NCBI GenBank assembly: GCA_963723235.1
Contig: CAVRPV010000019.1
Span: 84,064 to 148,063, forward strand
From: an uncultured delta proteobacterium
GTDB lineage: Bacteria; Desulfobacterota; WTBG01; CAIYCZ01; CAIRTM01
Reading direction: 5' to 3'
DNA length: 64,000 nt
Of the stretch, positions 4,498 to 55,463 are shown piece by piece. A model generated the notes under the pieces. The model saw nothing but the letters and a program-made list of their open reading frames with translations. It was not told the DNA's origin and ran no database searches. Each line of letters begins with the position of its first letter. Position 1 is the first letter of the stretch. A program made the position numbers and the translations under genes.

Positions 4498-4689
4498 ATG
4501 GAATGCAAGGCCGCTGAAAACAAACCACACTGCACCTGTACATACAGCTGCTCAAAAAAGGGCAACTGCTGCGCATGCGTCGCGTATCACCATTCCCGCA
4601 ATGAACTGCCCGGCTGCTTCTTTCCTCCTGCGGCCGAGCGCAGCTACGACCGCTCGCGGCAGGCGTTTATGCGGGCATGGAGTGCGTAA
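4498..4689 (+). CDS. Small cysteine-rich hypothetical protein (HCTCTYSCSKKGNCCACVAYHH), possibly metal-binding
   Basis: 63-aa ORF carrying 8 Cys in 25 residues, in a tight intergenic position after argC. No family recognised. Confidence 0.35.
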   Translation: MECKAAENKPHCTCTYSCSKKGNCCACVAYHHSRNELPGCFFPPAAERSYDRSRQAFMRAWSA

Positions 4690-35138: not shown

Positions 35139-35383
35139 CGTCATTGCCTTTACCAACGCACCTTGAATCCGAACCGCCCTGTGTTGCACAAACGACGCCA
35201 CCTGTTTTCAACACTCCCACGCGCAAAACAAATCACCGGTTGTTTTATGGGGTAAATATTGCTATAGTTTTTCAGGCTGAACGCCTATAACACCACTACA
35301 AAAAAACCGCAGCGGCCGTGCAAAGGCCTGGGATATTTTTCAGTCGCCGGCTTTCAAAACCGCCGGACAGGGGAGCAACAGCT

Positions 35384-36364
35384 ATGATTCTTATAACCGG
35401 GGCATGCGGATTTATCGGCAGCGCGCTGGCCTGCGCACTCAACAGGAAAGGCGACAGTGATCTTGTGCTGTGCGACCGCTTCGGGCAGCATGAAAAATGG
35501 CAAAACCTGCTGGGGGTGTCTTTCCGCAGATTCATCCATTGCGACCAGCTGTTTGATTTCCTGGGAAGCGAGCATAATGCCCGGCAGCTGAGAGCCATTG
35601 TGCATCTGGGGGCCTGTTCTGACACAACGCAGACCGATATGGACTACCTGCTCGAAAACAACGTTAATTTTTCAATCAGGCTGTGCCAGTGGGCCCTTGA
35701 TAATGATGTGCGCTTTGTATACGCGTCCTCGGCCGCTACCTACGGTGACGGCAGCCAGGGGTTCAGCGATGCCGACGAGGTAACCCCGCAGCTCAGACCG
35801 CTCAACAAGTACGGGTTTTCCAAATGGCTTTTCGATATGTGGGTGCTGCAAAACGCCCATCAACACCGCATTGCCGGACTGCGCTATTTCAATGTATACG
35901 GGCCCAATGAATACCATAAAGGCGCCATGGCCAGCGTGATTTTTCGCACACTCCCGCAGGCCCTGAGCGACGGCAGGATCCGCTTGTTCGAATCACATCG
36001 CAGCGACTGTGCTCACGGTGAACAGGCCCGCGATTTTATCTACATTGACGAAATTATCGACATAACCTGCTTTGTGCTGCAAAACCGTCAGGCAAACGGC
36101 ATCTTCAACGCCGGCACCGGCCGGGCCCATACCTTTAACGAGCTGGCGCACGGTATTTTTGACGGGCTGGGCAAAAAACCGGTCATCGAATATTTCCCCA
36201 TGCCTGAGGAGCTGCGCGGACGCTATCAGTATTTTACCCGGGCGGACATGAACCGCCTGCAGCAGGCCGGGTACACGCCCGGGCCTGACCGCTTCCGGGA
36301 ATTCGTCGCCCGCTATGTCAGGGACTATCTTGTTCCGGGATGCAGGTATTACGCCCAGGTCTGA
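35384..36364 (+). CDS. hldD: ADP-L-glycero-D-manno-heptose 6-epimerase
   Basis: MILITGACGFIGS, YASSAATYG, YGFSK, FNVYGPNEYHKGAMAS. Confidence 0.85.
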   Translation: MILITGACGFIGSALACALNRKGDSDLVLCDRFGQHEKWQNLLGVSFRRFIHCDQLFDFLGSEHNARQLRAIVHLGACSDTTQTDMDYLLENNVNFSIRLCQWALDNDVRFVYASSAATYGDGSQGFSDADEVTPQLRPLNKYGFSKWLFDMWVLQNAHQHRIAGLRYFNVYGPNEYHKGAMASVIFRTLPQALSDGRIRLFESHRSDCAHGEQARDFIYIDEIIDITCFVLQNRQANGIFNAGTGRAHTFNELAHGIFDGLGKKPVIEYFPMPEELRGRYQYFTRADMNRLQQAGYTPGPDRFREFVARYVRDYLVPGCRYYAQV

Positions 36365-36457
36365 TCAGCAGAACACCGAAAAACCACATGGCGGCTTTAC
36401 AAAGCCGCCTTTTTTTAACAGGCCACACGGTCGTTGACCTGTGAACGGAGACACATC

Positions 36458-37282
36458 ATGGGACTAAACGTACAGGAAGCTAAAAAAATTTTCGACCGGG
36501 CTGTCGCCGAATCCGGTACGGCTGAAATAAACCTGTATGACCAGCTGATCAACTCCATCGGCACAGACGATACCCCTGAGCTGCAGGCACTGAGCGCCAA
36601 GGCACGCCTTAATAAAGGTATCAGCCTCGCGCAGCAGGGCAAGCTGCAGGATGCCCTCAATGTTTTTGAAGCCCTTCAGCGTTCATGCGCTGATTCGACG
36701 CAGCTCGCCATACGCTCGCTTGCGGCTGCGGCCATGGTTAACCGGGGCTTTGTGCTGGCCCTGCAGCAAAACACTTTGCAGGCCCTGGCCGCCTACGATG
36801 ACGTTGTTGACCGCTTCGGAGATGCTGATGAGATCGAGCTGCAGGAACAGGTTGCCAAGGCCCTGGTTAACAAGGCCTGCACGTTTGCGCGCAGCAACCG
36901 CAGCACTGAGGAATACGTTGTTTTTAATGACATCATGCGCCGCTTTGCAGACGCCGGAGACAACCGGCTGCGGCTGCTGGTTGCAAAAGCACAGCATAAC
37001 CGCGCACTGGCCCTTGATAAAATGGGCAGCACTGCAGAAGCGGATGCAATCCTGGAATCAATCGCTGAGCAGTTCTGGCAATCCGGGCAAAGCGAACTCA
37101 AGGAGCAGGTAATCCACGCCCTCGCACAGAAAGCAGCCCTGCAGGCCCGCCGCGGCAACCGCAACGAGGCCAATGACATCTATGACCGGATTTTAAACCA
37201 CTACGCAGATGACCCTGACCAGACACTCAAAGAACACCTTGACCGCGTCCGCTTCAACCGCGGTTTCAGTTATCACTTTTAA
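36458..37282 (+). CDS. Hypothetical helical-repeat (TPR-like) protein
   Basis: Repetitive Ala/Leu-rich helical pairs. No catalytic motif. Confidence 0.4.
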   Translation: MGLNVQEAKKIFDRAVAESGTAEINLYDQLINSIGTDDTPELQALSAKARLNKGISLAQQGKLQDALNVFEALQRSCADSTQLAIRSLAAAAMVNRGFVLALQQNTLQALAAYDDVVDRFGDADEIELQEQVAKALVNKACTFARSNRSTEEYVVFNDIMRRFADAGDNRLRLLVAKAQHNRALALDKMGSTAEADAILESIAEQFWQSGQSELKEQVIHALAQKAALQARRGNRNEANDIYDRILNHYADDPDQTLKEHLDRVRFNRGFSYHF

Positions 37283-37491
37283 CAGGCTGTCGAAAAGCTC
37301 TCATCTCCTGCTATTTTAAGAAATGAACTTGCTCTATCAGGGCCTTGAAAAGTCTTCTTCTAAAGGCTGTTTAAAAATGTGCAGATGCAGACGCGCGATT
37401 TCATGAGGAATGAGGCTACTTATCGTACGCCGCAGTGACGAATGATGAGTGAACGCAGCAGATGTCCTTTAACAGCCTGATAACACCTGCC

Positions 37492-38037
37492 CTATTGTTT
37501 AATCGGCCCGAACTGCGCGCGTATTCCATTGGCCGCGGCCATGAGATCCTTTGAAATCACGAACAGCGGGCTGCATTGACCGGTCGAGATTCCAAGGACC
37601 CCTGCGGTGGCGCTGAGACTTCCGCGCTGCCGGTACAAAAGATCAAGCATGGCTGCGCAAAAAAGCGCATAGCGCTCATTCTTAGGATTCATTCTTCTAA
37701 CAGAGGGTTTAAAATACGGCAGCAGTTCTTCCGGCAGATTCCAGCCGTGTTCAGGACTCACGCGCAGGCGCAGGGCCAGCAGGATTTTCAAACGGCGCAG
37801 GGCACGCGCGCGGTTTTCATGCTGCGAGCGGCTTTCTTCGGCAACAACAGACAGCCCGGTCGGCTTATGCGTTACGCGCACAGCGCTATAGGTCCGGTTG
37901 CGTTTCTGCCCGCCCGGGCCGGAGGCGGTATACGCATCAAAAGCGCATTGCTTCAGGAATTCAGGATCCGTTAATGTCAAAAACGGGTATGCACCCTGCT
38001 CGGTGATAATGGACACCTCGCCATAGGCAATTATCAC
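37492..38037 (-). CDS. RF-1-domain (GGQ-motif) peptidyl-tRNA hydrolase, ArfB/YaeJ-like
   Basis: [25 protein letters not shown] with a basic C-terminal tail. Confidence 0.7.
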
Positions 38038-38189: not shown

Positions 38190-38227
38190 CAAATAAAAAA
38201 AGGCAGGGCCGTGTGGGGGCCCTGCCT
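38190..38227 (-). terminator. Rho-independent terminator for the giant minus-strand gene
   Basis: Hairpin AGGCAGGGCC-GTGTGG-GGCCCTGCCT followed, on the minus strand, by T9. Confidence 0.7.
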
Positions 38228-38269
38228 TCTGTTGTTACCCGTTTATACTGCCTGGTATTACTGCCGGCT

Positions 38270-38960
38270 AACCTTAAAATAGTATATCCGGTGAGTACGT
38301 CCGCTGACCGGCGCAATCGGTTACAGCAAACCGGAAGTCATACGTCACGCCGTTCTGCAGGCTCTCTACCGGCAGATGTGCCCGGGCACTTCCCTTGGCC
38401 TCATTGACCGTAACGGCGAAGCGCTGTCCAGTTGCTCCCGCCAGCCACTTGGTACTCGGCACCGTGCGTACACAGCACCAGAACAGGATACATAATCATC
38501 GCTGAATGTCCACAGCACATCATAATTTACATCCAGTCAACGGCGCTTTCAGCCGATGGTCGGCAGCAGCGGCCAGACCCTGCTGCCAGAAACGGACCGG
38601 CGGTGATTACCGGCGGGGCATCAAGGCGCACACCTTGAAATAGTATGATGCCGGTGAGTTGTCCGCTGACCAGCGCAATCGGTTACTGCAAACCGGAAGG
38701 CATATGTGCCGTTCTGCAGGCTCCCTACCGGCAGCGTAACCCGGGCAGTGCCCTTGGCAACATTGACTGTAACACCAAGCGCTGTCCAGCTGCTGCCGCC
38801 GACTACCTGGTACTCGGCAACGTGCGTGCATGCTCCCGAACATGATGCAAAATCATCGCTGAAGGTCCACAGCACGTCATAATTTGCATCAAGATACAAG
38901 GGCGCTCTCAGGCGATGTCGGCAGCAGCGGCCACGCGCCTGCCGCCAGAAACGGACCGGC
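38270..38960 (+). repeat. Diverged tandem duplication of about 340 bp (2 copies) encoding the repeated C-terminal domain of the giant protein
   Basis: 38270-38600 and 38630-38960 align at about 75-80% identity. On the minus strand both encode ..YDVLWTFSDDF.SCSGAC..L(P)V.SLQNG.(T)Y.FRFAVTDCAGQRT. Confidence 0.75.
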
Positions 38961-41900
38961 GGTGACGCAGGGGGATTGTCTACTACAACCGGTACGCACG
39001 CACCATCCACGCACTCATAGCCTTCGGCACAGTTTTCATTGCCCAGACACGCAACGCACTGATCGTTGTCCTCGTTGCAGTATTCGCCCTCACCACAGGG
39101 CGATGAGCCCGCAACGCAGGCGCCTTCAACACACGTTTCTGCGCCGTTGCAGTACAGACCGTCCTCGCACTCGCTGTCAGCCTGACACAGGCGCTTCCAG
39201 ATAAACACCGAGCCCGAACTGTTGTTCTTGGCGAGCTGGTGTCATAAACAGTTGCCAGCGACCTCCAGTCTGCCATCATTGTCAAGATCATAGAGCTGCA
39301 CATCGGCTGACATGCTGGCCTGCATTATCCCACAGGGCAGCGCGCCTGAAGGTCAGGCAACCAGCTGGCTTCCTCCGCCTGATAATAATACACGGCCCCG
39401 CGCCCGTCACCGGCAACCACCATGTCGCTGAGCGACATCCCCGTTAATATCCCCCACCGCTGCAAAACCGGGAGAGCCCTGGCTGTACGGCCCGCCGGTG
39501 CGGTCGACTTTATAGGCATCGCCCGTGTCAATGGCCACCGGCGCCCAGTTCGCAGTGTCATAGGGATCATCGGGAATACTCAGGTAATACACGCCTGAAG
39601 GCCAGATCCGGTATTGCGCATACACGGGCGGGGTATTATCGGGACGTGTATGCAGGCTTATACTCCTGATGGTTATGGCTCGTAAAAATTATCTCATCTA
39701 TACCGTCATTGGTGATATCGGCAGGGAAAGCCAGAAAGCCTTTACCCATAGGATTGGGAGATGTGTACCAGTTGTCAATGGTATAGCGTTCCCAGGCCAT
39801 ATTCGGATCTGAAGCAAGCGCTGCCGGGCCGGGATTTTTGAACCACATCAGGCTGTCGCCATGCGGATTACTGCCATCGGGACTACCCTTGATGTCAGGG
39901 TACCGGGTTCGGTAATAAAAAACTGGGGCCCGAGTATATCAAGCAGCCCGTCGTCGTCAACGTCGGCCATGTCAAACAGAAATCCCGCGCCGTCACCAAT
40001 AGCATACGGGCCGGAGAAACCGGAAGGATACGCAACCCGGTCGGTTTCTGCCCTGAACCACTCGGTCCACTGGTACTGCCTGTCGTACAGCGGACTCGTG
40101 GACCTTGTGCTGCCAGATGTACATCGAAATGCTGCTTGTTACAAAATCTTCACGCCCGTCGCCGTCAAGATCAAGGAAATATGCCTGATGAAAGGATGCA
40201 ATTGCCTTGGCCCAGAGATATTCATTATCAGGCCGTGATCGTCCCAGGTCGTATCGCCTTCGTAAATCGTAATCTTCTGCCAGTTGGCCGGGTCGGTAAC
40301 ATCGCCGCCCAGGTTTTTGAGGTAAAAGACCCCTCCGGGGAAATTCGGTAAATGCGCCTGCCAGAAAATTATCAAATACCATGATGTCCACTTCACCGTC
40401 GCCGTCAACATCCCGAATCAGCATATCATTGGCCCAGGCAAAATCAGCGCGGATGACCGACTGCGTCCATGTGCTCAGATCCTCGCTGGTACGCTTAAAA
40501 ACAGCCACAGCTCCATCCTTTACCGCATAAGTTCCAGACGCTCCCGTGACCGATGTGACAACAATTTCCTTTGTTGCCATCCCCGTCCAGATCACCGGCT
40601 CTCAGGAATGAGGCCCCTATAAATCCCGGCAGGGTTGGGGTCAGGTCCGGGCAGCTCCGTTGTAATACCCGTTACTGTATAGCGCTGAAATTCGCCTGCA
40701 AGATCCTGATCCGCTGTGACGTTCACGCAGGGCTCTTCCGCCAGGCGAAAAATTTTTGCTCCGCCCAGCGACTGGGGTCGCGCTTGCTCCTTTGCTGCCG
40801 GACACGTACAGCGTGCCGCCGAAATCGGTAAAAGCCTCAAAGTTGATAATGTTGCTGTCACCAAACCCGTCAGCGGTCACCGGTGTCCAGGTCAGCCCAT
40901 TGGTGGTCCTCCAGATCTGGGCTCCCTTGAGCTGGCTTATATCAGCGGGAATATTGTATTCTGGTGCGTACTGGCTTATGGTTCCGCCATACAGCTTGTC
41001 CCTGAACGTGAACAGGTTGACCGCAAGGTTCTGGTAGCTGGTCGTGCCGGGATATTGATATGCATCGAACCCGTTGAGATAATTTGAGGTCCCAAGCGGA
41101 TCGGTATAGCCTGTGGCAACATTTCCTGTACCAACGCTGTAGAACCACCGGCCGTCACCATTCATATCCTTGACAATGGGAGTGCCGTCAGGCTTTTCAG
41201 GGAACAGATACGGTGCCCTGAGCACTCTGCAACCTTCACCGCTGACGCCCACCATGAGCTCATCATTGAAAGCTGCAAGGCTCCAGGGCATAAAATTGAT
41301 TTTTATTGGTGGTGCATGTAGATGGACTGCCGAATCCGTTTTCATTGGATCCGGTTGTGTTCGTTGTATCAGCAGCGTTGTCAACAATCAGCTCCCAGCC
41401 GCTTGCGGTGAGCCTGGCCATGCGCGCGCAGCCGCCCAGTTGCCGCGTAGCGCCGGTGCCGCCGGCATACAGCACCGGCGTTCCAGAAACGGAGAAACAA
41501 CCAGATCGGTAATACTGGTTGAAACCGGCTTCGATTGCCGGGGTAAGCTGTCGATGTATGAAAATTGCCGAAGCTGTGATTTGTATAGGGCTCTACCGTG
41601 TCGCGAATCGATCTGGTCACCTCCAGGTATCGCCGTCAGCGGTATACCAGATCTGACCGCCGTATTTATAATTAAGGCCGGTGCTGACATACAGTTTGCC
41701 TTCGAAAATACGCATGGCCGTAATGGTCTTATTCCAGGCTGGCCAAATCCGTTTTGCTGGTGCCCATGGCAACATCATAGCTGTCATCCGACCGCTAATC
41801 GCGCCAAGCGTATATGAATACATCGGGAAGGGGTTATCCCATGTTTCCGGCATCACAGACTCGTATAGATCATTCGGCGTATATGTCCAGCGTCTTCATT

Positions 41901-42604
41901 CTGCTGAATTGTAAGAGTCGTTGCCGTATTGCCTATAATGTCAAATTTACGAAATTTCCCGTTGCCTGAAGTTATCCGCAGAATACCGCCGGCCCATTCA
42001 TTAGCTGCCCAGTTCTTGGTGGTGTCGGTAAAAAAGGCCTGCGTATTACCGTCACCCCGCTGCGCAGCCTGCAATTGCGCTAATGGTTCCGGAATCGTCG
42101 GCAACACCAGGATTACTGTCGGAAATCACCGGCTCCCATGTTGTTCCGTCATAGCGCCAGATTTCGCAGCCGGTAGAACCGAGATAGTTGCCCTGCAGGC
42201 CGGAAGAAAACCCGAAATAGAGCTTGTCCTTAAAAACAATCATGCGGCCCCAGACATTGTTGATCCAGGTGTTGCCGTAAACGCCGTTAGTCGCGCCATC
42301 CGGAAACAGCACCTGCTCCCAGCCGCCGCTACCTCGTGCGCCAGACCTCCGTGCCCTCGACCTTGTTGCGGGTCATGGCATACAGGCTGCCCTGATACTC
42401 GGCCATCGCTACAACCGACATATTATTCGTGTTTTCAAACCCAGGTAGAGATACCTGCTCCCACACTGATCCGTCAGTCGCAATTATCTGGTCTTCGACT
42501 GCGTCAGGTATGTTCAGCTGAGCAGACGCCAAAGCGCCGCTAAAAAGCATAACAGCCATGCATACTGATGCTATTAACCCAACATGCTTCTTTCTGGCTT
42601 CCAT
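38274..42604 (-). CDS. Giant secreted surface protein(s) of about 1400 aa with a signal peptide, beta-propeller-like repeats, FG-GAP/VCBS repeats, an EGF-like Cys-rich stalk and a tandem pair of C-terminal beta-sandwich-like domains; at least 12 frame changes
   Basis: Signal peptide MEARKKHVGLIASVCMAVMLFSGALASA at 42604. Recurrent ..IWR(Y/T)..G..W.. units (41.4-42.5 kb). DxDGDG motifs (DVDGDGEVDIMVF, FLDLDGDGREDFV) at 39.4-40.6 kb. CEDGLYCNGAETCVEGAC..CVAC..CAEGYECVDGAC at about 39.0-39.2 kb. Whether this is one gene or two cannot be resolved. Confidence 0.55.
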
Positions 42605-42812
42605 TACCGCACCTCCTGTTTTGATTGTTGTATTTATGCAACACTATTTATATTTATTAACTATTCATACTTATTATTATGACATACTTTCTGACACACG
42701 GCAATAATTTGCAAAGTTATATTACAAAATACATGCCAAAAAATTAAATAAAATTTTCATTAGATTTTTCAACAAATTATGAATCAATGACCTAAAAACG
42801 AAAGATGGCTGT

Positions 42813-42834
42813 TGTGTAAACTTTAACTTACACA
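42813..42834 (+). promoter_or_regulatory. Perfect inverted repeat TGTGTAA-N8-TTACACA; candidate enhancer-binding-protein site
   Basis: Lies in the AT-rich 345-bp region between the sigma-54 response regulator gene and the giant gene start. Confidence 0.4.
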
Positions 42835-42893
42835 TTCAACATTAATTGAATGCAATTATTTGATTTAATTTATTTTTCCTAAAAATACGCGTT

Positions 42894-42911
42894 TTGCAAA
42901 CTTAAGTTTAC
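42894..42911 (+). promoter_or_regulatory. Near-perfect 18-bp palindrome TGCAAACTTAAGTTTACA
   Basis: Contains GTTTACAC, which is the reverse complement of GTGTAAAC in the upstream palindrome. Two related dyad sites about 80 bp apart is a typical arrangement for NtrC-type regulators. Confidence 0.4.
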
Positions 42912-43019
42912 ACCTGTCCTTCTTTCAGGCCATACCGCCTTATTTTTTTGTACAATGCCACCCTTGATATTTTCAAGGCCATTGCTGCCCGTGTATGGTT
43001 ATAATTATGCATTTAAAAC

Positions 43020-44400
43020 CCTGACGATGATATCGCTTTCAAACTCTCGCGCGAGCATCCCGAAGCGGGTCCTCCGAATCGAGCAACCCGGTAATATCAT
43101 CCGGAAGCATCAGATACAATGCGGTAAGTCGGACTGGTTTCGAGCTGCAGAGAATTCCTCAGTTCCGCCGCCCACCAGACATGTCCGCTCAAGCATATTC
43201 TGCAGTTCGCGCACATTGCCGGGATAGGCATATTGCAGAAAAAAAGTCATGTCTTTCTGGGAAAGACATGCGGGGCCGTATTATGCTTTTTGGCATATTC
43301 ATCCAGAAAATGCTCAATAAGCAGCGGAATGTCTTCGCGGCGCTTGCGCAGCGGGGGCAGATGGATAGGAATAATATGGATGCGAAAATACAGATCTTCT
43401 CTGAAATTACCGCTGAGCACCTCGTCCTTAAGATTTTTATTGGTGGCCACGATGATGCGTGCATCGACCCTGGAAACAGTCGAACTGCCAACCCGCATAA
43501 ACTCTCCGTGTTCAAGCACACGCAAAAGCTTGACCTGCATATGCAGGACGCATTTCACCGATTTCATCCAGAAACAGGGTGCCGCCGTCGGCTTCCTGAA
43601 AAAAGCCCCTGGCATCCCTCACCGCCCCGGTAAAAGCGCCTTTCACATGACCGAAAAACTCGCTTTCCATGAGAGCGGATGGAATCGCGCCGCAGTTAAC
43701 CGCCATAAACGGCCCCTGGCTGCGATTGCTGGCACTGTGAATCGCCCGGGCGACCAGCTCCTTGCCGGTCCCGGTTTCACCCGAAATCAAAACGTGGGAA
43801 TCGCTGTGCTTGATACTCTCAATTAACTGATATACCGCGCGCATGGCAGGGCTGTTGCCGACAATACTGCCGTAAATAGGCGTGCTGTTGAGCCTGCGCG
43901 TAAGCACAACAATCTCTTGTTTCTGCTGATCGGTTTGCCGTTGCAGTGTTTTCAGCCGCAGCACGGCTTTAACACGGGCCAGCAGTTCCAGGGAGTTGAA
44001 CGGCTTGGCGATATAATCATCAGCCCCGGCCTCAAGGCCCTCAACCCGCATGTCCACATCAGCCTTGGCAGTCAGAAAAATAAACGGAATCGTCCTCCAG
44101 CGCTCATTATTTTTAAGCTGCCGCAGCAGCTCATAACCGTCCATGTCCGGCATCATGATATCACTGATAATAAGCTCCGGGAGCATGCTGCTCCAGCAGG
44201 CGCAGTGCCTCCCGCCCGTTTTCAGCTGCCACATAGTCATATTCGGATCGCACGATGCCGGCAATGTAGCGCAGCACATCCCTGTTATCATCGACAATCA
44301 GCAGCAGCGGCCTGCTGCCGCTGATACTGCGAAGATCAGCATGTTCATCAGAGGCCAGCGCGGCTGTTTCAACATCGGCATTCAGTGTAAGTCCCTGCAT
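43020..44400 (-). CDS. Sigma-54-dependent response regulator (REC-AAA+-HTH, NtrC family), frameshifted
   Basis: REC domain (LLLIVDDN.., [12 protein letters not shown]), AAA+ domain ([30 protein letters not shown]) and a segment ..[22 protein letters not shown]... The 3' end is approximate. Confidence 0.8.
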
Positions 44401-45660
44401 GGGCAGGCCTCCGCATCAGCCACAGAAAGGCCGGCTTCGGGCTGCTCAAGCGGCAGATACACACAAAACTGCGATCCGGCTCCCGGCTCGCTTTTTACCG
44501 TTATGGTTCCGTGCATGCTTTCGATAAGCTCCCGGGTATGCGCCAGGCCGATACCGCTGCCGCCGCGCTCAAGAGCCAGGTTTTCACCGGACTGCTTAAA
44601 ACGCTCAAAAACCGTCCTGAGATGCTCGGGTTGAATCCCGATGCCGGTATCGCGTATACACAACCGGACATGGGTTTCAGGAGATAGAGTCTGCTCAACC
44701 GCACGGGTCACAACGGTTTCATCCCCCGGGATACTGGCGGGAGCCCGGGCAAGTTCGACACGTATCGTGCCGCCCTCCGGCGTAAACTTGAAAGCATTGC
44801 CGATCAGGTTAAAAAGCACCTTTTCAAACGACGGGGCGTCAACCGGCACTGCAGGCAGGGACGCTTCCGTCTCAACAACCACGGAAATTTTTTTCTTCGC
44901 GGCGATCACGCTGAAAGCATCAAGCACCGCGCTGGCAATGGCGCCCAGGTCCTTCTTTTCCCAAAACAGATTTGTACTGCCGGACTCAACCATGCTGAAA
45001 TCAAGCAACTGATTGACAAGCTTCAGCAGGTGACGCGAGTTGCGCAGGGCCACGGAAATCTGTTCCTGCATATCCGGGCCAATAGGGCCGAATTCCCCGC
45101 GCAACAAACCCTCCAACGGCCCGATTGCCAGTGTCAGGGGCGTGCGAAATTCATGCGTAATATTGGTAAAAAAACGACTGCGGAACCGATTGGCCTCAAC
45201 TGCTGCCTGGCGCGAAGCGCGCAGGGCTTCCTCAGTGCGCTTACGCTCAACCAGCTCCGCAGTCAGGCGCCTGCCCAAATCACGCAGCCGGCCCAGCGCC
45301 GCGCCTATCAGCAACAGGGCGATCATACCGGCAATTCCAGCGCCCCCAAGCAGCGCATCCGGGGCTTTCAGCCCCGAGATCATATACATGAAGGAAATTC
45401 AAGGGAAAAACCAGAAACGCGGTCAACACCCCGGGCACAAATCCAAAAAGCCAACTTACAGCCGCAACCAGCAGCACAATAGCTGTCGGCCCGCCTGTGC
45501 CGTAGATGTTTTCAAGAAAAATAAAACTGCTTACATATGCGCAGAAGGCAAAGACCACCAGAAGCAAACGGATCCTCACCCCGGCAAAACGGCCGCGCGC
45601 GCGCGGGCTGACAATCTCAGAGCCCGGCTTAGCAGAGATGTTATGTTGGACCTGTTCCAT
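44382..45660 (-). CDS. Membrane sensor histidine kinase (HisKA + HATPase_c) cognate to the sigma-54 response regulator
   Basis: H-box ITHEFRTPLT, N/G boxes (LIGNAFKFT, GGSGIGLAHT), and an N-terminal TM region in the adjacent frame. Overlaps the RR start. Confidence 0.8.
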
Positions 45661-46865: not shown

Positions 46866-47256
46866 GCGTACTATCCTTTCTCAATCAAACCGATAGTTTA
46901 AACACGATTTCCCTGACACTGCAGCGTGCCCGGACATATATATACTATCACATAAACGGTTTCAGCATACAACCCGAAAACCACCGCAAGGCTGCCCCCT
47001 TAACGTACAAACGGAAAGATCTTCTGCACGGTGCACTAACCGAACTGCAGCGCACGCACGCCGTATCAGCCTTACCCGCTCAAGCATAGCATGACGTCCA
47101 TATACCACCGCGTTTGAAAGGGAATTCCGGATTAACACCATTACAATTTTATTTGCCAAAATGCAATTTTACGGATACTATGCACCCACAGCTCGCCTGA
47201 ATTTTCCGTACCGTTTCCGCAATCCAGGCGGTCATGAGAGTGAGAGAGGAAATAGA

Positions 47257-47607
47257 ATGCCTAAAGTCCTGGTTATTGATGATTCGCGCTATACAAGGCT
47301 TGCTATTGTCAGGTTTCTTGCCGCCAACGGGTTCGAGGTGCTTGAAGCCGAAAACGGCATGCTCGGCCTGGCAGCCGTAAGCCTTGAAAAACCCGATGCT
47401 ATTATCACTGATTTGCTCATGCCTGAAATGGACGGCTATGAACTGCTTGAACGCCTGCGTACAGACGGCAATACCACACCGGTGATCGTGATAACAGCCG
47501 ATATTCAGGATTCCACCCGGGAAAAAATAATGCAACGGGGCGCACGAGCCGTGATGAACAAGCCGGCCGATCTTCCAAAACTGCTGGAACTGTTGTCATT
47601 CGCGTGA
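47257..47607 (+). CDS. CheY-like single-domain response regulator
   Basis: MPKVLVIDDS..DLLMPEMDGYELL.. Confidence 0.8.
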   Translation: MPKVLVIDDSRYTRLAIVRFLAANGFEVLEAENGMLGLAAVSLEKPDAIITDLLMPEMDGYELLERLRTDGNTTPVIVITADIQDSTREKIMQRGARAVMNKPADLPKLLELLSFA

Positions 47608-47632
47608 ACATGCACAGGGGAGATACTGCCGC

Positions 47633-48247
47633 ATGAAAGAACTCAGTCCTCTTGAAATAGACGCCCTGACTGAAATAATCAATATCGGCGTAGGCCGGGC
47701 TGCCAGTTCGCTCAACGACATTACCGGCGCGCATATACAACTCAAAGTCCCGCGCATTGAACTGTTCCCGCTGGAAAAACTGACCGAGCTGCTGGGCCGG
47801 CTTGGGCATACCAATGTGTCAACGGTCATACAGACTTTCAAGGGTGAGTTTACAGGATCTGCCGCGCTCCTTTTTCCGCCTGAGAGCACATTGCGCCTGA
47901 TGTCGGCCCTGACAAAGGAGACCGTGAAGTCTGCGGATCTTGACAGTGACAGCCGCGGCATCCTGATGGAAATCGGCAACATCGTCATCAACTGCATCCT
48001 GGGTACAATGGCCAATATCCTTGAATGCAGCATGGATTTTTCACTGCCCCAGTACCGAAATATCAAAAATACCGATGACCTTCTTGCGGGGTCCGGGTTG
48101 CATGAGCATGAGGCCGGATTTATTATCCTTGCGGAAGCCAATTTTTATATCAAGGCCATGGAGGTCACCGGCTACATCTTCGTGTTTTTTAAAATCGACA
48201 GCTTCGAAACGCTTACCAAAATGATCACCCGCGCCGTGTCACGCTGA
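47633..48247 (+). CDS. CheC/CheX-family CheY-P phosphatase-like protein
   Basis: ..LTEIINIGVGRAASSLNDITG.. and a second ..EIGNIVINCILG.. repeat. Confidence 0.65.
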   Translation: MKELSPLEIDALTEIINIGVGRAASSLNDITGAHIQLKVPRIELFPLEKLTELLGRLGHTNVSTVIQTFKGEFTGSAALLFPPESTLRLMSALTKETVKSADLDSDSRGILMEIGNIVINCILGTMANILECSMDFSLPQYRNIKNTDDLLAGSGLHEHEAGFIILAEANFYIKAMEVTGYIFVFFKIDSFETLTKMITRAVSR

Positions 48248-48273
48248 CATACGCGCATCACAAGCCCGGAGCG

Positions 48274-49608
48274 ATGGATTTCACGCTTTCTTCATACGGC
48301 AGTGCCTCAAGCAGACCCTCTCCGGTCAACAGCATGATGGACGCGTTTGCGGCGAATTTCCGCCCCGGATGCGACATCAACCTCGGGGTCGGCTATGTGA
48401 ATGAACGCACCATTCCGGCTGAGCTTATTGTCGATGCGCTAAAAAAAATCATAACCGATCCCGCCCGTTATAAAACACCCTTCAATTATGGCGGACCCAG
48501 GGGCTCAGCCACCCTCATACAGTCCATTTTTGATTTCATCATACGCAGCGCTCGCGGTGGGCTGACACGCGAACACTTGCGCAGCAGGGAAATCATCATA
48601 GGCGCCAGCGGGGTTAGCAGCCTGCTGGAGGCAATGGCACACGTGGTACAGCCCGGCATTGTTATAACCTCCGACCCCATGTATTATATTTACTGCAACG
48701 TTCTGGAGCGCATGGGCTTTGAAGTCCTGACGGTTGCCGAAGATGCATCCGGCATGCGTACCGATCTGCTGCAGGAGAGACTGAACCAGCTCGGTGAGCG
48801 ATGCAGGGAGATCAGTTTTTTCTATATTGTTTCCGTCAATAACCCGACTGCCACGATACTGTCCAACAAGCGGCGGCGTGAAATTGTTGAAACAGCAGCC
48901 AGGCTTTCACGCAACCAGCAGCGCAAAATTCCCGTGCTGTTCGACACTGCCTACGACGACATCATCCATGACCCGGGCTGTGAAAAACCCTGCTCGGCCA
49001 TGCTGTTTGACGAGCTTGGCCTTGTGTATGAAGTCGGCAGCCTTTCAAAAATCCTCTCGCCCGCCCTGCGCATCGGTTACCTGATCGGCAGTCCCGGGCC
49101 GCTGCTGAACGCGCTCGTGCAGAAAACCGGCGACACCGGTTTCAGCGCACCATTGTTCAGCCAGGAAATTGCGAGCTATCTGCTTGACCATCACATCGAA
49201 GACCAGATCGCACGAGTCAACCGCGGCTACCATGAGAAAGCATGCGCGGTCAGAGGCTGGATTGAGCGCGAGCTTGGTCCCTGGCTTGAGGACTGCACCG
49301 GCGGCAGCGCGGCGTTCTATTTTTACCTGACCTTTAAAAACATCGCCACCGATGAGGATTCACTGTTTTTTAAATTTCTGACCCGGACCACAGGCAACCC
49401 AAAAATCGACGGTCCTGACGCGGACAAGCATGCCCGGGTTCTGTACGTGCCGGGCTGCCACTGCGTCCATTCGCGCGGCACGCTTCACGAAACGGGCCGC
49501 CGCCAACTGCGCATATCTTATGGTTTTGAAGAGCTGGAGCGCATTGAGCAGGCCATCGTGCTCATGCGCAAAGCAGCCTCTTTCTGCTCAAACAACACGC
49601 TCGTATAA
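48274..49608 (+). CDS. PLP-dependent aminotransferase (class I/II fold)
   Basis: 444 aa with an aminotransferase I/II domain architecture. Confidence 0.6.
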   Translation: MDFTLSSYGSASSRPSPVNSMMDAFAANFRPGCDINLGVGYVNERTIPAELIVDALKKIITDPARYKTPFNYGGPRGSATLIQSIFDFIIRSARGGLTREHLRSREIIIGASGVSSLLEAMAHVVQPGIVITSDPMYYIYCNVLERMGFEVLTVAEDASGMRTDLLQERLNQLGERCREISFFYIVSVNNPTATILSNKRRREIVETAARLSRNQQRKIPVLFDTAYDDIIHDPGCEKPCSAMLFDELGLVYEVGSLSKILSPALRIGYLIGSPGPLLNALVQKTGDTGFSAPLFSQEIASYLLDHHIEDQIARVNRGYHEKACAVRGWIERELGPWLEDCTGGSAAFYFYLTFKNIATDEDSLFFKFLTRTTGNPKIDGPDADKHARVLYVPGCHCVHSRGTLHETGRRQLRISYGFEELERIEQAIVLMRKAASFCSNNTLV

Positions 49609-53515: not shown

Positions 53516-55463
53516 TCAGAGAATAGATGCAGCCTTCATTGCAGCCTTTTCAGCTTTATGCCGATTCGAGAGATCGGTTTTTTCTGCTTTTTGCTCATCT
53601 GAAAGAGTATTTTTTTCAGATTTTTGCCGAACACTAAGAAGCTTGGCATCATCTTTATCAACGTCACAGTCACCGTCCAGGTCCCATTCCAGGCCGCATC
53701 CGGAAAAACCCATAGCAGCCTTCATTGCAGCCTTTTCGGCTTTATGCCGATTCGAGAGAGCGGTTTTTTCTACTTTTTGCTGAGTTGAGAGAGCAGTCTT
53801 TTCGTTCTTTTGCCGGAGCTTAAGAATACTGGAATCGTATTTATCAACGTCACAGTCACCGTCCAAGTCCCATTCTACATCGCAGATGCACTTGTCAATA
53901 CCCTCGTCGCAGGTTTCACCCGCTGAGCAGGGACCGGCTGCAAACCCGCACACCTCAGCCGTACAGACCGGCGCACCGGTGCAATACAGGCCGTCATCCG
54001 GGCAGTCACTGTCCTTCAGGCACTCTACATACTCCAGGCTGAACTCAACCGTCTGGTTATCGCCGTGGATCACGGTCACATCCTCGGTCTGGCTGCGGTA
54101 GTTTTCGGCAGATACCGTAAGGGTATAGCTTTTTTCATCATTTTCAGGGCCGGAAACCACGCCCCGCTAACATGAATTGGCCTTTGGTGTCGGTACGCGT
54201 TTCATAGCCGCCCATGCCGGTTTTCACCAGCGCATTTGCAATAGGCTTTTGCAGCACCCGCGAGACCACCGTACCCTTGATATTGCCATTGCGCAGATTG
54301 CCGTAAATAACTATCTTCTCGTCATTGAGCAGGCCCCAGCCCGCGTCGGTCTGGCTGTTTCTCCAGTCATATTCTGTTGTGCCTTCAGGCAGCGGATCGA
54401 CCCGGATGGCGGCGACACCGCGGGCTGAAAAGCCGGCATTATGGTCGGTATTGACCTCATTTTTATCATAGGGCCAGGGCTCAGCAGCAGGTGTTGCCGA
54501 GGTTGCCTGACGGTCGGGATAGCCGGGTCTCCACTGCGGGGGCACAGCCCGGAACGGGCCTTCGCCCACGAGCTTGTTCTGGGCGTCCTGGTAGGCAATG
54601 TCGAGATAGGCGCCGTTGGCCTTGTAGGCAAGCAGCAGCTTCAAACCACCAGCAACCGTTATGGTCTGGCCATGAGTCCTGCCGGTGCAGCCCGGCGCGC
54701 TGTAGTCGACCCAGCCGCCATTGGCTGAATCTGCTGTCGCATCATAAAAATATTGCGCCTGCGGATAGGTTCCCTCAATGGGGTAATTAGTGCCGGTGCT
54801 CGTGCGCGCATAGGTATAGCTGTAGCCGTCGGGTGCGGTAACGGTTATGCCGGAGCTGGCAGCGGTCCAGCCGGTTGCCTCAAGCAGCTCCTGCATAATG
54901 AAGCCGGTATACGTGGCATAATAGTCGAAGCCGCTTTCTCCGCCCCGGCTGGTGTTCATGAGCATAAACTGCGCATGGGGCGTCAACATGGATTCAAGCT
55001 CATCAAGGCTCAAAATAATATGCGGCGCCGGCACTTTTGCCGGCGTGTCGAGCGCGTCACCGGGATAGCGAATGGCATTGATTTCCGTTATATTGCTGTA
55101 GGTGTCATTGTCCGAATCAAGGCCCTCAATTGCTTCAAGGGCCGCCAGGCTTCTGCCCGCCGCATTATAATCTGTGCCGAAGGGGTTGAGTGTTTTGGCA
55201 ATATCGCCCGATCCATCATAACCATATACTGTGTGGCAATACTGGCACGCGCTCTCGGTGACCACGGCCCCCGATTTTGTCTTGTACGTATTGCCCTTGT
55301 GGCACGTGGCGCAATCGTCAAGCTTGGTGCCCGCCTTGTCGGGGTAGACCTTCAGAAATTTCGGGGCGTCTTGCTCATCCAGATGATGGTAGGCGCCAAA
55401 GGCCGTGCCTGAGAAAAGCGCAAGCACGGCAATCCCTAAACACAGTGTTCTCAGTCGTCTCAT
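53516..55463 (-). CDS. Secreted multidomain protein: diheme c-type cytochrome, unknown central domain, CarboxypepD_reg-like domain, EGF-like Cys-rich module, and Asp-rich tandem repeats; frameshift near 54150
   Basis: Signal peptide. Two CxxCH motifs (DCATCHK, CQYCH). ..NGNIKGTVVS..TDTKGQFML / SGPENDEKSYTLTVSAENY.. across the shift. CPDDGLYCTGAPVCTAEVCGFAAGPCSAG..; repeats CDVEWDLDGDCDVDK..KAEKAAMKAA x2. Confidence 0.55.

Follow-up and report, generated by a model that had tools for sequence, protein, structure and literature searches.

The locus considered here raises the question of whether DNA that lacks any long open reading frame (ORF) can encode an intact regulatory system together with its target. 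The window (the whole 64 kb stretch of contig CAVRPV010000019.1 that was analysed) derives from an uncultured Thermodesulfobacteriota (Desulfobacterota), a sulfate-reducer-type bacterium. In its 38-46 kb region there is no long ORF; what is seen is a minus-strand chain of short ORFs in shifting frames that together carry a continuous protein signal. An earlier note had read this chain as a histidine kinase and an NtrC-type sigma-54 response regulator upstream of a gene of approximately 4.3 kb for a signal-inducible surface protein. We report that the chain comprises two genes, both on the minus strand and spanning 38267-45660, and we consider it fairly likely that these constitute a regulator-effector pair, intact beneath ~39 consensus errors, in which a membrane sensor-kinase-receiver-sigma-54 activator switches on the gene for a giant secreted protein. 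The two genes (sizes in amino acids, aa) are as follows.

42909..45660, minus strand: hybrid regulator gene (~915 aa), from frameshift-aware alignment to the intact protein P0146 and the 922-aa protein of locus L002, and from Pfam
38267..42604, minus strand: gene for a big secreted multidomain protein (~1445 aa, ~4.3 kb), from alignment to the homolog P0001 and confirmed against the L002 ortholog

Because plain tblastn smeared over the frameshifts, a purpose-written frameshift-aware protein-to-DNA aligner was used. Reference homologs of the big protein were found via a rough stitched protein; they are intact and full-length (1225-1471 aa), the best being P0001 at 100% query coverage. Against P0001 the big gene needed 31 frame corrections, all of a single base (~16 insertions and ~15 deletions) and outside homopolymers, and with the L002 ortholog as reference the same number was obtained at nearly the same places. 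The corrected product of 1445 aa is identical to P0001 at 955 of 1402 positions (68%, end to end) and contains no in-frame stop. Eight corrections of 1 bp (at about 45390, 44411, 44184, 43547, 43267, 43127, 43041 and 43013) restored the regulator, likewise with zero stops, so that the total comes to ~39 indels (31 + 8), every one of 1 bp. The corrected big protein keeps 46 of the 48 family-invariant residues, the two misses being one patched position and one conservative I-to-V change; for near-invariant residues the figure is 114 of 123, where the family mean is 117 and the minimum 85. The ~4.3 kb gene proposed earlier is thus present, although broken by the 31 single-base frame changes: it begins with an ATG at 42604 preceded by an AGGAGG ribosome-binding site (42617-42612), ends at ~38267-38276 and is followed by a hairpin.

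38198..38230, minus strand: intrinsic terminator hairpin (13 bp stem, 8 GC pairs, T-run), 3' of the big gene

The big gene probably ends in YYFKV* (GTT TAG) at 38267-38276 on the minus strand, one T having been dropped from a T-run; as assembled, the frame closes instead at a TAA at 38276-38274, in a different frame.

Frame breaks of the same kind occur elsewhere in the window. A codon-usage frame tracker describes the window as a mosaic, clean at ~19.4-37.3 kb and 45.8-57 kb and fragmented at ~8-19 kb, 38.2-45.8 kb and 57.4-62.7 kb. An unrelated CitMHS/TrkA_C transporter gene (12483-10701, minus strand) has seven single-base frameshifts and zero stops while being 82% identical to an intact ortholog, and four genes from the clean zones have zero frameshifts. 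A CrtI-like FAD oxidoreductase at ~10150-8570 (minus strand) also looks split. Moreover, the same regulator occurs, at ~91% nucleotide identity, on contig L169 (contig_105517, a long-read-assembler-style or Flye-style name), where it too is frameshifted; the break codons there are aa 237, 306, 320 and 828, as against aa 90, 417, 492, 704, 798, 844, 871 and 881 in the window. Real decay would bring nonsense codons, eroded conserved residues and inherited lesions. Since stops are absent, conserved residues are kept, the lesions differ in L169, unrelated genes are hit and relatives are intact, the frameshifts are taken as consensus errors and not as pseudogenisation, and regulator and effector are predicted to be biologically intact. 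This bears out the earlier supposition that the broken ORF is a sequence-quality problem, and the residual stops that the earlier note had proposed to look for after correction were found in neither gene. Programmed frameshifting is rejected, with 39 events of which none is common to relatives. Our guess is that paralogs and strain variants at the locus confuse long-read polishing, hence an error patch that matches the module.

What kind of regulator emerges after correction? Its domain order is four transmembrane helices, HisKA, HATPase_c, REC, a sigma-54 AAA+ domain and a Fis-type helix-turn-helix (HTH), placed as follows.

45272..45588, minus strand: four-helix membrane sensor module (aa ~25-130) with very short loops, from hydropathy and alignment
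44447..45182, minus strand: kinase core, HisKA (H-box ITHEFRTP at 45161-45138) and HATPase_c (N, G1 and G2 boxes intact), from Pfam and motifs
43973..44307, minus strand: receiver domain (DD at 44307-44284; phospho-acceptor motif at 44168-44136), from Pfam and motifs
43366..43868, minus strand: sigma-54 AAA+ domain (Walker A GETGTGKE at 43781-43758; GAFTGA at 43640-43623; Walker B LFLDEIGE at 43577-43554), from Pfam and motifs
42922..43047, minus strand: Fis-type HTH_8 (PF02954; the L002 ortholog scores 36.5 bits, and the window alignment extends through LKISRVALYKKI)

The regulator starts with MEQVQHN (ATG at 45660, the end coordinate given in the earlier note), as does the intact P0146 (915 aa), to which it is identical at 813 of 912 positions (89%), and it ends with a TAA at 42911-42909; it is 79% identical to the syntenic single ORF of 922 aa in L002. 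Pfam recognised HisKA (E 1.8e-15), HATPase_c (E 1.7e-24) and Sigma54_activat (E 3.6e-44), as well as REC and AAA_lid, on window fragments. PF00158 scored 150.8 and 72.7 bits on two fragments and 233.8 bits in the L002 ortholog, in which HisKA, HATPase_c, Response_reg, Sigma54_activat, AAA_lid_14 and HTH_8 all lie above the Pfam thresholds. The signalling motifs, that is the H-box histidine, the N, G1 and G2 boxes, the receiver DD and phospho-aspartate, Walker A and B, GAFTGA and the HTH, are intact in the window. Hydropathy and alignment gave no periplasmic domain in the N-terminus, and the only profile similarity of the sensor module is to DUF4118, below threshold.

The kinase and the sigma-54 regulator that had been placed upstream of the big gene are therefore present and co-oriented, but they are not separate genes. 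The reading frame runs without interruption across the kinase-receiver junction of the window once one 1-bp indel is corrected, and the regulators P0146, P0144 and L002 (922 aa) are each a single ORF. Because the frame is continuous over the junction and the intact relatives are single ORFs, the regulator is one membrane-anchored kinase-receiver-activator polypeptide; the two-protein two-component system proposed earlier does not hold. The family with this fused architecture comprises roughly 60 clusters, almost all of them from Desulfobacterota/Thermodesulfobacteriota metagenome bins; most members have extra PAS domains, there are several paralogs per genome, and the names are generic only. 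A full-text literature search gave no description of a fused membrane-anchored sigma-54 activator, which is absence of evidence only. In a scan of metagenome contigs dominated by generic REC/kinase peptides (e.g. DIMMPDMD), the window regulator matched only unrelated kinases at 30-39% identity. The paralogous PAS-containing hybrid kinase/sigma-54 activators of loci L011-L022, several per genome in Thermodesulfobacteriota bins, have OYE-type flavin oxidoreductases, FAD-linked oxidase and other secreted proteins as neighbours. The idea that every hybrid kinase-activator in this family governs a big exoprotein is accordingly rejected: L011-L022 adjoin flavin oxidoreductases or other genes, and the dyad described below is absent.

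The link between the two genes lies in the spacer between them, which is AT-rich and measures 304 bp (from the stop at 42909-42911 to the ATG at 42604) and not 345 bp as first stated. It holds these elements.

42895..42912, no strand assigned: dyad 1, minus-strand reading TGTAAACTTAAGTTTGCA, proposed activator site overlapping the regulator stop codon, from the consensus and orthologous loci
42815..42832, no strand assigned: dyad 2, TGTAAGTTAAAGTTTACA, proposed activator site 80 bp from dyad 1, from the consensus and orthologous loci
42724..42738, minus strand: sigma-54-type -24/-12 element TGGCATGTATTTTGT (TGGCAT-N5-TTGT, GG-N10-GT), ~94 bp 3' of dyad 2 and ~120 bp 5' of the ATG

The two dyads noticed earlier are the only two matches to TGTAAAC-N4-GTTTACA (with at most two mismatches) in the 64 kb window, where 0.15 would be expected. 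The search for a -24/-12 element, proposed at the same time, returned TGGCAT-N5-TTGT at 42738-42724, which is also the sole match to TGGCAY-N5-TTGY in the window. If functional, the dyads were expected to recur in orthologous loci, and they were found in L002, L169, L009 and L010.

Window: dyads TGTAAACTTAAGTTTGCA and TGTAAGTTAAAGTTTACA, spacing 80 bp, promoter TGGCATGTATTTTGTA
L002: dyads TGTAAACATTTGTTTACA and TGTAAACAAAAGTAGACA, spacing 79 bp, promoter TGGCATGTATTGTGTA
L169: dyads TGTAAACTTAAGTTTGCA and TGTAAACAAAGGTTTACA, spacing 83 bp, promoter TTGGCATGTA ~100 bp on; the contig stops before the -12
L009: dyads TGTAACCTTTAGTTGTCA and TGCAAACTTTTATTTACA, spacing 88 bp, promoter TGGCATATTGGTTGCA (canonical)
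L010: dyads TGTAAACTTTTGTTTACA and TGTTAACTAATATTTACA, spacing 100 bp, promoter TGGTACATGAATTGCA (canonical)

In the window, L002, L009 and L010 the dyads are 79-100 bp apart and the -24/-12 element follows after 93-104 bp more, a layout that is kept though the identity of the regulator drops to 54% and the remaining spacer has diverged. Dyad 1 overlaps the regulator stop codon in the window, L002 and L169, and the elements of L009 and L010 are canonical (TGGCAT/TGGTAC-N5-TTGCA). The two-dyad and promoter layout was found in all five of the loci that have a big-gene homolog downstream of a regulator of this clade. Neither dyad nor promoter motif was found upstream of the homologs in L003, L004, L005, L006 and L007, which have a NarL-type regulator or no adjacent regulator, and the layout is also absent beside the paralogous hybrid regulators of L011-L022. 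Together, the presence of the layout in all clade loci and its absence from homologs with other or no regulators support a putative dedicated sigma-54 control of the adjacent giant gene. A -24/-12 element was also found in the fragment upstream of P0001 (L001; TGGCACGTATCGTGTA) and before an extra big-gene paralog in L002 (TGGCATGTGTTTTGTT). Downstream of the L012 and L015 regulators there is a TGGCAT-N5/6-TTGT-like element while the TGTAAAC dyad is absent.

The effector itself is a secreted protein in which the following parts can be distinguished.

42518..42604, minus strand: Sec-type signal peptide (aa 1-29, MEARKKHVGLIASVCMAVMLFSGALASA before Q) with no lipobox cysteine, read from the sequence and conserved in homologs
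40745..42520, minus strand: N-module (~590 aa), propeller-like and all-beta, with W-x-x-(D/T)-G-x-x-W blade motifs, from AlphaFold2 and Foldseek; no Pfam family
39215..40636, minus strand: FG-GAP/VCBS region with seven DxDxDG-type calcium-binding-type loops, integrin-alpha-like, from PF13517 and Foldseek
38969..39193, minus strand: Cys-rich stalk (~75 aa, ~14 Cys), from the alignment-corrected product
38628..38957, minus strand: C-terminal ~110-aa beta-sandwich domain, copy 1, from repeat analysis and fn3/Ig-pair Foldseek matches
38267..38598, minus strand: C-terminal ~110-aa beta-sandwich domain, copy 2, from repeat analysis

Several of these parts had been recognised in the uncorrected letters. 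The signal peptide can be read directly, and for the IWR..G..W blades an AlphaFold2 run on an N-module homolog with a 58-sequence alignment gave an all-beta propeller-like fold with pLDDT >90 over residues 30-620. When this model was compared with the PDB using Foldseek the matches were endosialidases, GH74, sortilin Vps10p, PLL lectins and sialidases, with a probability of 1.0 for endosialidase, GH74 and sortilin. No Pfam family was assigned to the module in P0014 or in the window fragments, TIGR04534 reached 20.4 bits against a cutoff of 65, and profile searches with both halves of the big protein returned no sequence relatives in the PDB. A linker separates the N-module from the FG-GAP region, for which PF13517 is above its cutoff in the window fragment 39993-40595 (28.4 versus 26.9 bits) and in the intact orthologs P0001 and L002 (about 40-49 bits; 40.3-49.2), in agreement with the FG-GAP repeats reported earlier. 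The best Foldseek match of the C-terminal half is the integrin alphaV ectodomain (E 1e-8, TM 0.29), and the C-terminal tail, in the same model, matches fn3/Ig pairs.

Of the Cys-rich EGF/disintegrin-like stalk that had been described, the Cys-rich stalk stands and the homology does not: no Pfam or NCBIfam EGF or disintegrin profile matched at E<=0.1 or E<=0.01, and this homology is rejected for want of profile support. Sub-threshold similarities were limited to TraA (20 bits), TIGR04201 (myxobacterial Cys-rich repeats; 17.6 bits) and Dumpy DPY (17.1 bits). The claim that the module is common to the protein at 53.5-55.5 kb is confirmed by 46% identity over 46 aa, with cysteines aligned, to the window protein 53516-54160. 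At 53516-55463 (minus strand) a frameshift near 54150 seems to have broken a single gene into two ORFs, of 439 aa and 214 aa. This gene would encode a signal peptide, two CXXCH haem motifs, a CarboxypepD_reg domain that the break cuts in two, the shared Cys-rich module, and two dockerin/EF-hand-like DLDGDCDVDK repeats with Lys/Glu-rich segments between them.

The two tandem ~110-aa copies at the C-terminus, with their 340-bp DNA duplication, are present as described, with a period of ~358 bp, 83.5% nucleotide identity over 340 bp and 75% aa identity. Two copies occur in the window, P0001, P0002 and the L002 ortholog and one in P0009 and P0062, the domain being undetected in the other homologs. 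In P0001 the copies are only 49.5% identical in aa and have no DNA similarity. As the orthologs P0001, P0002 and L002 are also two-copy, the duplication is ancestral and a recent, window-specific origin is rejected; the unusually alike copies suggest that gene conversion or re-duplication may have taken place in the window lineage.

In an exhaustive profile search the N-module family matched 3,847 proteins at E<=1e-3, of which 502 passed E<=1e-30. No more than a few dozen representatives (at 50% identity) match the module over its full length, while the rest match via 5-20 copies of the blade; these blade-repeat relatives are mostly unannotated, with weak DUF6242, BNR_6 and ELWxxDGT signals. 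About 90 homologs join the N-module to alpha/beta-hydrolase domains, thrombospondin type-3 repeats, CarboxypepD_reg-like domains or dockerin-like repeats, and dozens have hydrolase fusions (PF12695, PF12740, PF07224 and PF03403). Invariant D, E, R, H and Y residues are numerous in the module. Genes for glycosyltransferases, sulfotransferases and sugar epimerases abound in the gene neighbourhoods, which also contain pga-like genes and, in L004, a heparinase II/III-like gene. In more distant lineages the big-gene homologs adjoin a divergent PAS-HisKA_3 kinase and a NarL-type regulator, and the sensor module of the window is 37-44% identical, with shared motifs, to the N-termini of the PAS-HisKA_3 kinases beside the big-gene homologs in L003, L005 and L007. 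Since these kinases carry the same four-helix module, the sensor module and the exoprotein family appear to travel together while the output pathway varies. Sigma-54 has been linked to functions at the bacterial exterior (PMC3162934). Taken together, these features point to a big product that would be inducible, exported and calcium-dependent and that binds or processes a cell-surface or matrix polymer; most likely the effector binds, or possibly processes, an extracellular polymer such as a cell-surface or matrix polysaccharide.

Other explanations of the same data have to be weighed. That regulator and effector form a true decaying pseudogene cluster, inactivated together and gathering frameshifts, would fit the close match between the indel-rich patch (~38285 to ~45390) and the regulator-effector module, the flanking FAD-oxidoreductase and RF-1 genes being intact. 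We find it very improbable: all 39 lesions are 1-bp indels with no nonsense codon among them, family-invariant residues are kept at the normal rate of the family, the same lesion type occurs in unrelated genes and in other patches of the window, the related long-read-style contig L169 is broken at other codons, and close relatives have an intact regulator (P0146, 915 aa, 89% identical). It is also conceivable that the dyads are a weak terminator or attenuator of the regulator gene, or the sites of another factor, and that the big gene is read from a sigma-70 promoter. Dyad 1 sits on the regulator stop codon, a plausible place for a terminator, a sigma-70-like match (9/12) lies on the gene strand at 42704-42676, and the -12 element is non-canonical. 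Against this stand the conservation between loci of the dyad sequence itself and not just of its pairing potential, the two copies at enhancer-like spacing, and stems that are AT-rich, only 7 bp long and have no T-run. The motif co-occurs solely with this regulator clade, and the TGGCA(C/T) element is conserved in position; sigma-70-like matches in the region number 15 versus a shuffled expectation of 8.3, i.e. about twofold only. We therefore regard this alternative as unlikely.

The nature of the effector leaves more room. The big protein could be a secreted enzyme, or the partner of one, acting on an extracellular polymer (a glycan-degrading or -modifying, or esterase-associated, propeller) in place of an adhesin or matrix protein. 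The best fold matches of the N-module to endosialidases, GH74 xyloglucanases and sialidases would agree with this, as would its fusion to alpha/beta-hydrolase domains in dozens of homologs, its many invariant D, E, R, H and Y residues, and the polysaccharide-synthesis genes nearby together with the heparinase II/III-like gene in L004. On the other hand, no glycoside hydrolase or sialidase profile matched the big protein, the window protein itself has no hydrolase domain, and the fold matches, with TM-scores <=0.3 and ~10% identity, indicate a generic propeller only. We rate the enzyme reading as possible, if rather doubtful; the role as an "adhesin" or "surface" protein would likewise be a presumed one, with an enzymatic or a lectin role equally possible. 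Several points weigh against the regulator-effector reading as a whole. Those Foldseek matches are generic, the AlphaFold2 model of the C-terminal half is of low confidence (mean pLDDT 59), and neither a catalytic constellation nor a ligand was identified for the big protein; no anchor or sorting signal was seen on it. The -12 of the window and its closest orthologs reads TGT instead of the near-invariant TGC: the GG-N10-GT variant is common to the window, L002 and L001 while the GC form is found in L009 and L010, and having been seen in four independent assemblies the TGT is not an error. TGT at -12 is tolerated in natural promoters. The orthologs of the L006 and L001 type have the big gene without this regulator immediately upstream. 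Finally, a membrane-tethered AAA+ activator must reach the DNA, for which no precedent was found in the literature searched.

How, then, might the regulator-effector pair work? The analysis shows the structures of the genes, the fusion, the intactness of the catalytic motifs, the conserved enhancer and promoter and the error origin of the frameshifts; the dependence on sigma-54, the location of the product and its ligand are inferred, as are the signalling steps, which follow from the domains and the NtrC-type precedent. A membrane or envelope signal would govern autophosphorylation at the H-box histidine, and the phosphoryl group would move within the same protein to the receiver aspartate. 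Phosphorylation of the receiver would license oligomerisation of the AAA+ domain on the two TGTAAAC-N4-GTTTACA sites, at and 80 bp past the regulator stop, and ATP hydrolysis would then remodel sigma-54 RNA polymerase at TGGCAT-N5-TTGT, ~94 bp further downstream. The 4.3 kb gene would thereby be switched on and its product exported via the Sec signal peptide. Much more tentatively, and with considerable doubt, we suggest that the enhancer-binding protein stays membrane-anchored and acts in cis on the neighbouring gene, that the enhancer on the stop codon may hold the locus at the membrane during synthesis and insertion, and that sensor module and exoprotein form a conserved pair, with the sensor keeping watch on the exoprotein or on the matrix that it acts on. 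The thought of such a pair derives from the same four-helix module being found beside the exoprotein family with two different outputs, one being the sigma-54 hybrid and the other a PAS-HisKA_3 kinase paired with a NarL-type regulator.

Known systems resemble the locus in part. Like NtrC, AtoC and ZraR, the window regulator has REC, a sigma-54 AAA+ domain with GAFTGA and a Fis-type HTH, and its best NCBIfam similarities are to AtoC (402 bits) and NtrC (390 bits), all equivalog cut-offs being missed. As at glnAp2, a pair of dyads, here putative enhancer sites, precedes the -24/-12 element of the window by about 100-190 bp. In contrast to NtrB/NtrC, the kinase is fused to the activator and anchored by four transmembrane helices, the enhancer overlaps the regulator's own stop and the -12 is TGT in the closest orthologs. 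The Bacteroides hybrid two-component systems (HTCS) such as BT4663 combine a membrane-spanning sensor, HisKA/HATPase, a receiver and a DNA-binding output, and they control adjacent extracellular-polymer genes. The window regulator is likewise a single polypeptide with a transmembrane region, HisKA/HATPase, REC and a DNA-binding domain, and BT4663 is itself among the Foldseek matches of the N-module propeller fold. HTCS, however, have a large periplasmic sensor and an AraC-type output with sigma-70, whereas the window regulator is without a periplasmic domain and its sigma-54 AAA+ output must oligomerise and hydrolyse ATP.

On the effector side, integrin alpha also has FG-GAP repeats followed by beta-sandwich domains, and PF13517, the seven DxDxDG-type loops, the order of propeller and beta-sandwich and the best fold match (integrin alphaV) agree with this; the window protein differs in having an unrelated propeller-like module of ~590 aa in front, in being bacterial and secreted and in lacking a transmembrane anchor, the model being of low confidence. 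With the BNR/Asp-box and ELWxxDGT proteins (sialidase, GH74 and sortilin type; TIGR04534) it has in common the W-x-x-D-G-x-x-W blade motif and generic propeller fold matches, with weak TIGR04534 and BNR_6 signals, none at threshold, in the N-module and its repeat relatives. Unlike in these, the blades have diverged into a single non-repetitive module of ~590 aa with inserted subdomains, in which catalytic residues were not identified. PrsK/PrsR (TIGR02915), a sigma-54 system associated with PEP-CTERM and exopolysaccharide, is similar in that its response regulator is linked to exported proteins where exopolysaccharide is involved (PMC1569441). The window differs in that kinase and regulator are not separate and in that the big protein, which ends ...YYFKVS, has no PEP-CTERM-like tail; with 329.7 bits, below the TIGR02915 cutoff of 502.6, and this tail absent, membership in PrsK/PrsR is rejected.

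If the model holds, the locus would be a sigma-54 counterpart of the Bacteroides HTCS, and it would pose the mechanistic question of how an AAA+ activator that has to form a ring on DNA can function when fixed to the membrane. With one regulator, two enhancer sites, one promoter and one target gene, the system is compact and lends itself to testing. The analysis also defines an extracellular propeller-like module of ~590 aa that has neither a Pfam family nor a solved relative. Since it is combined with FG-GAP propellers, esterase-type hydrolases and thrombospondin-type and dockerin-like repeats, this N-module is probably part of the cell-surface/matrix toolkit of uncultured Desulfobacterota. 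A practical lesson is that patchy 1-bp indel errors in metagenome assemblies can mimic a pseudogenised operon, and that the two can be separated without the reads.

Around the module the gene order is partly conserved. An intact FAD-dependent oxidoreductase gene lies beyond the regulator (46865-45807) and an intact RF-1-domain gene after the big gene (38037-37492). At 35318-38037 the window encodes the RF-1-domain protein (ArfB-like), a TPR protein and an NAD-dependent sugar epimerase, an order that every close orthologous locus (L001, L002 and L006) keeps downstream of the big gene. Divergent from the FAD oxidoreductase, 47161-49608 (plus strand) carries genes for a CheY-like receiver, a CheC/CheX phosphatase and an aminotransferase, which are also present in L169 (909-3254) and in the P0146 contig. 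The short-read contigs that carry P0001 (L001 1-138 and two others, from three samples) each start 138-208 bp 5' of the gene; the AT-rich regulatory spacer is a recurrent break point of the assemblies.

Between the FAD oxidoreductase and the regulator, L002 (2808-6686) and L169 (4843-8714) have an extra paralog of the big gene, which is missing from the window and from the P0146 contig and is thus a presence/absence polymorphism. A duplicated FAD 3' end of ~45-60 bp flanks the paralog in L169 (repeats near 4681 and 8860), and the big gene of the window (42564-40001) is 88% identical in nucleotides to this upstream paralog of L169.

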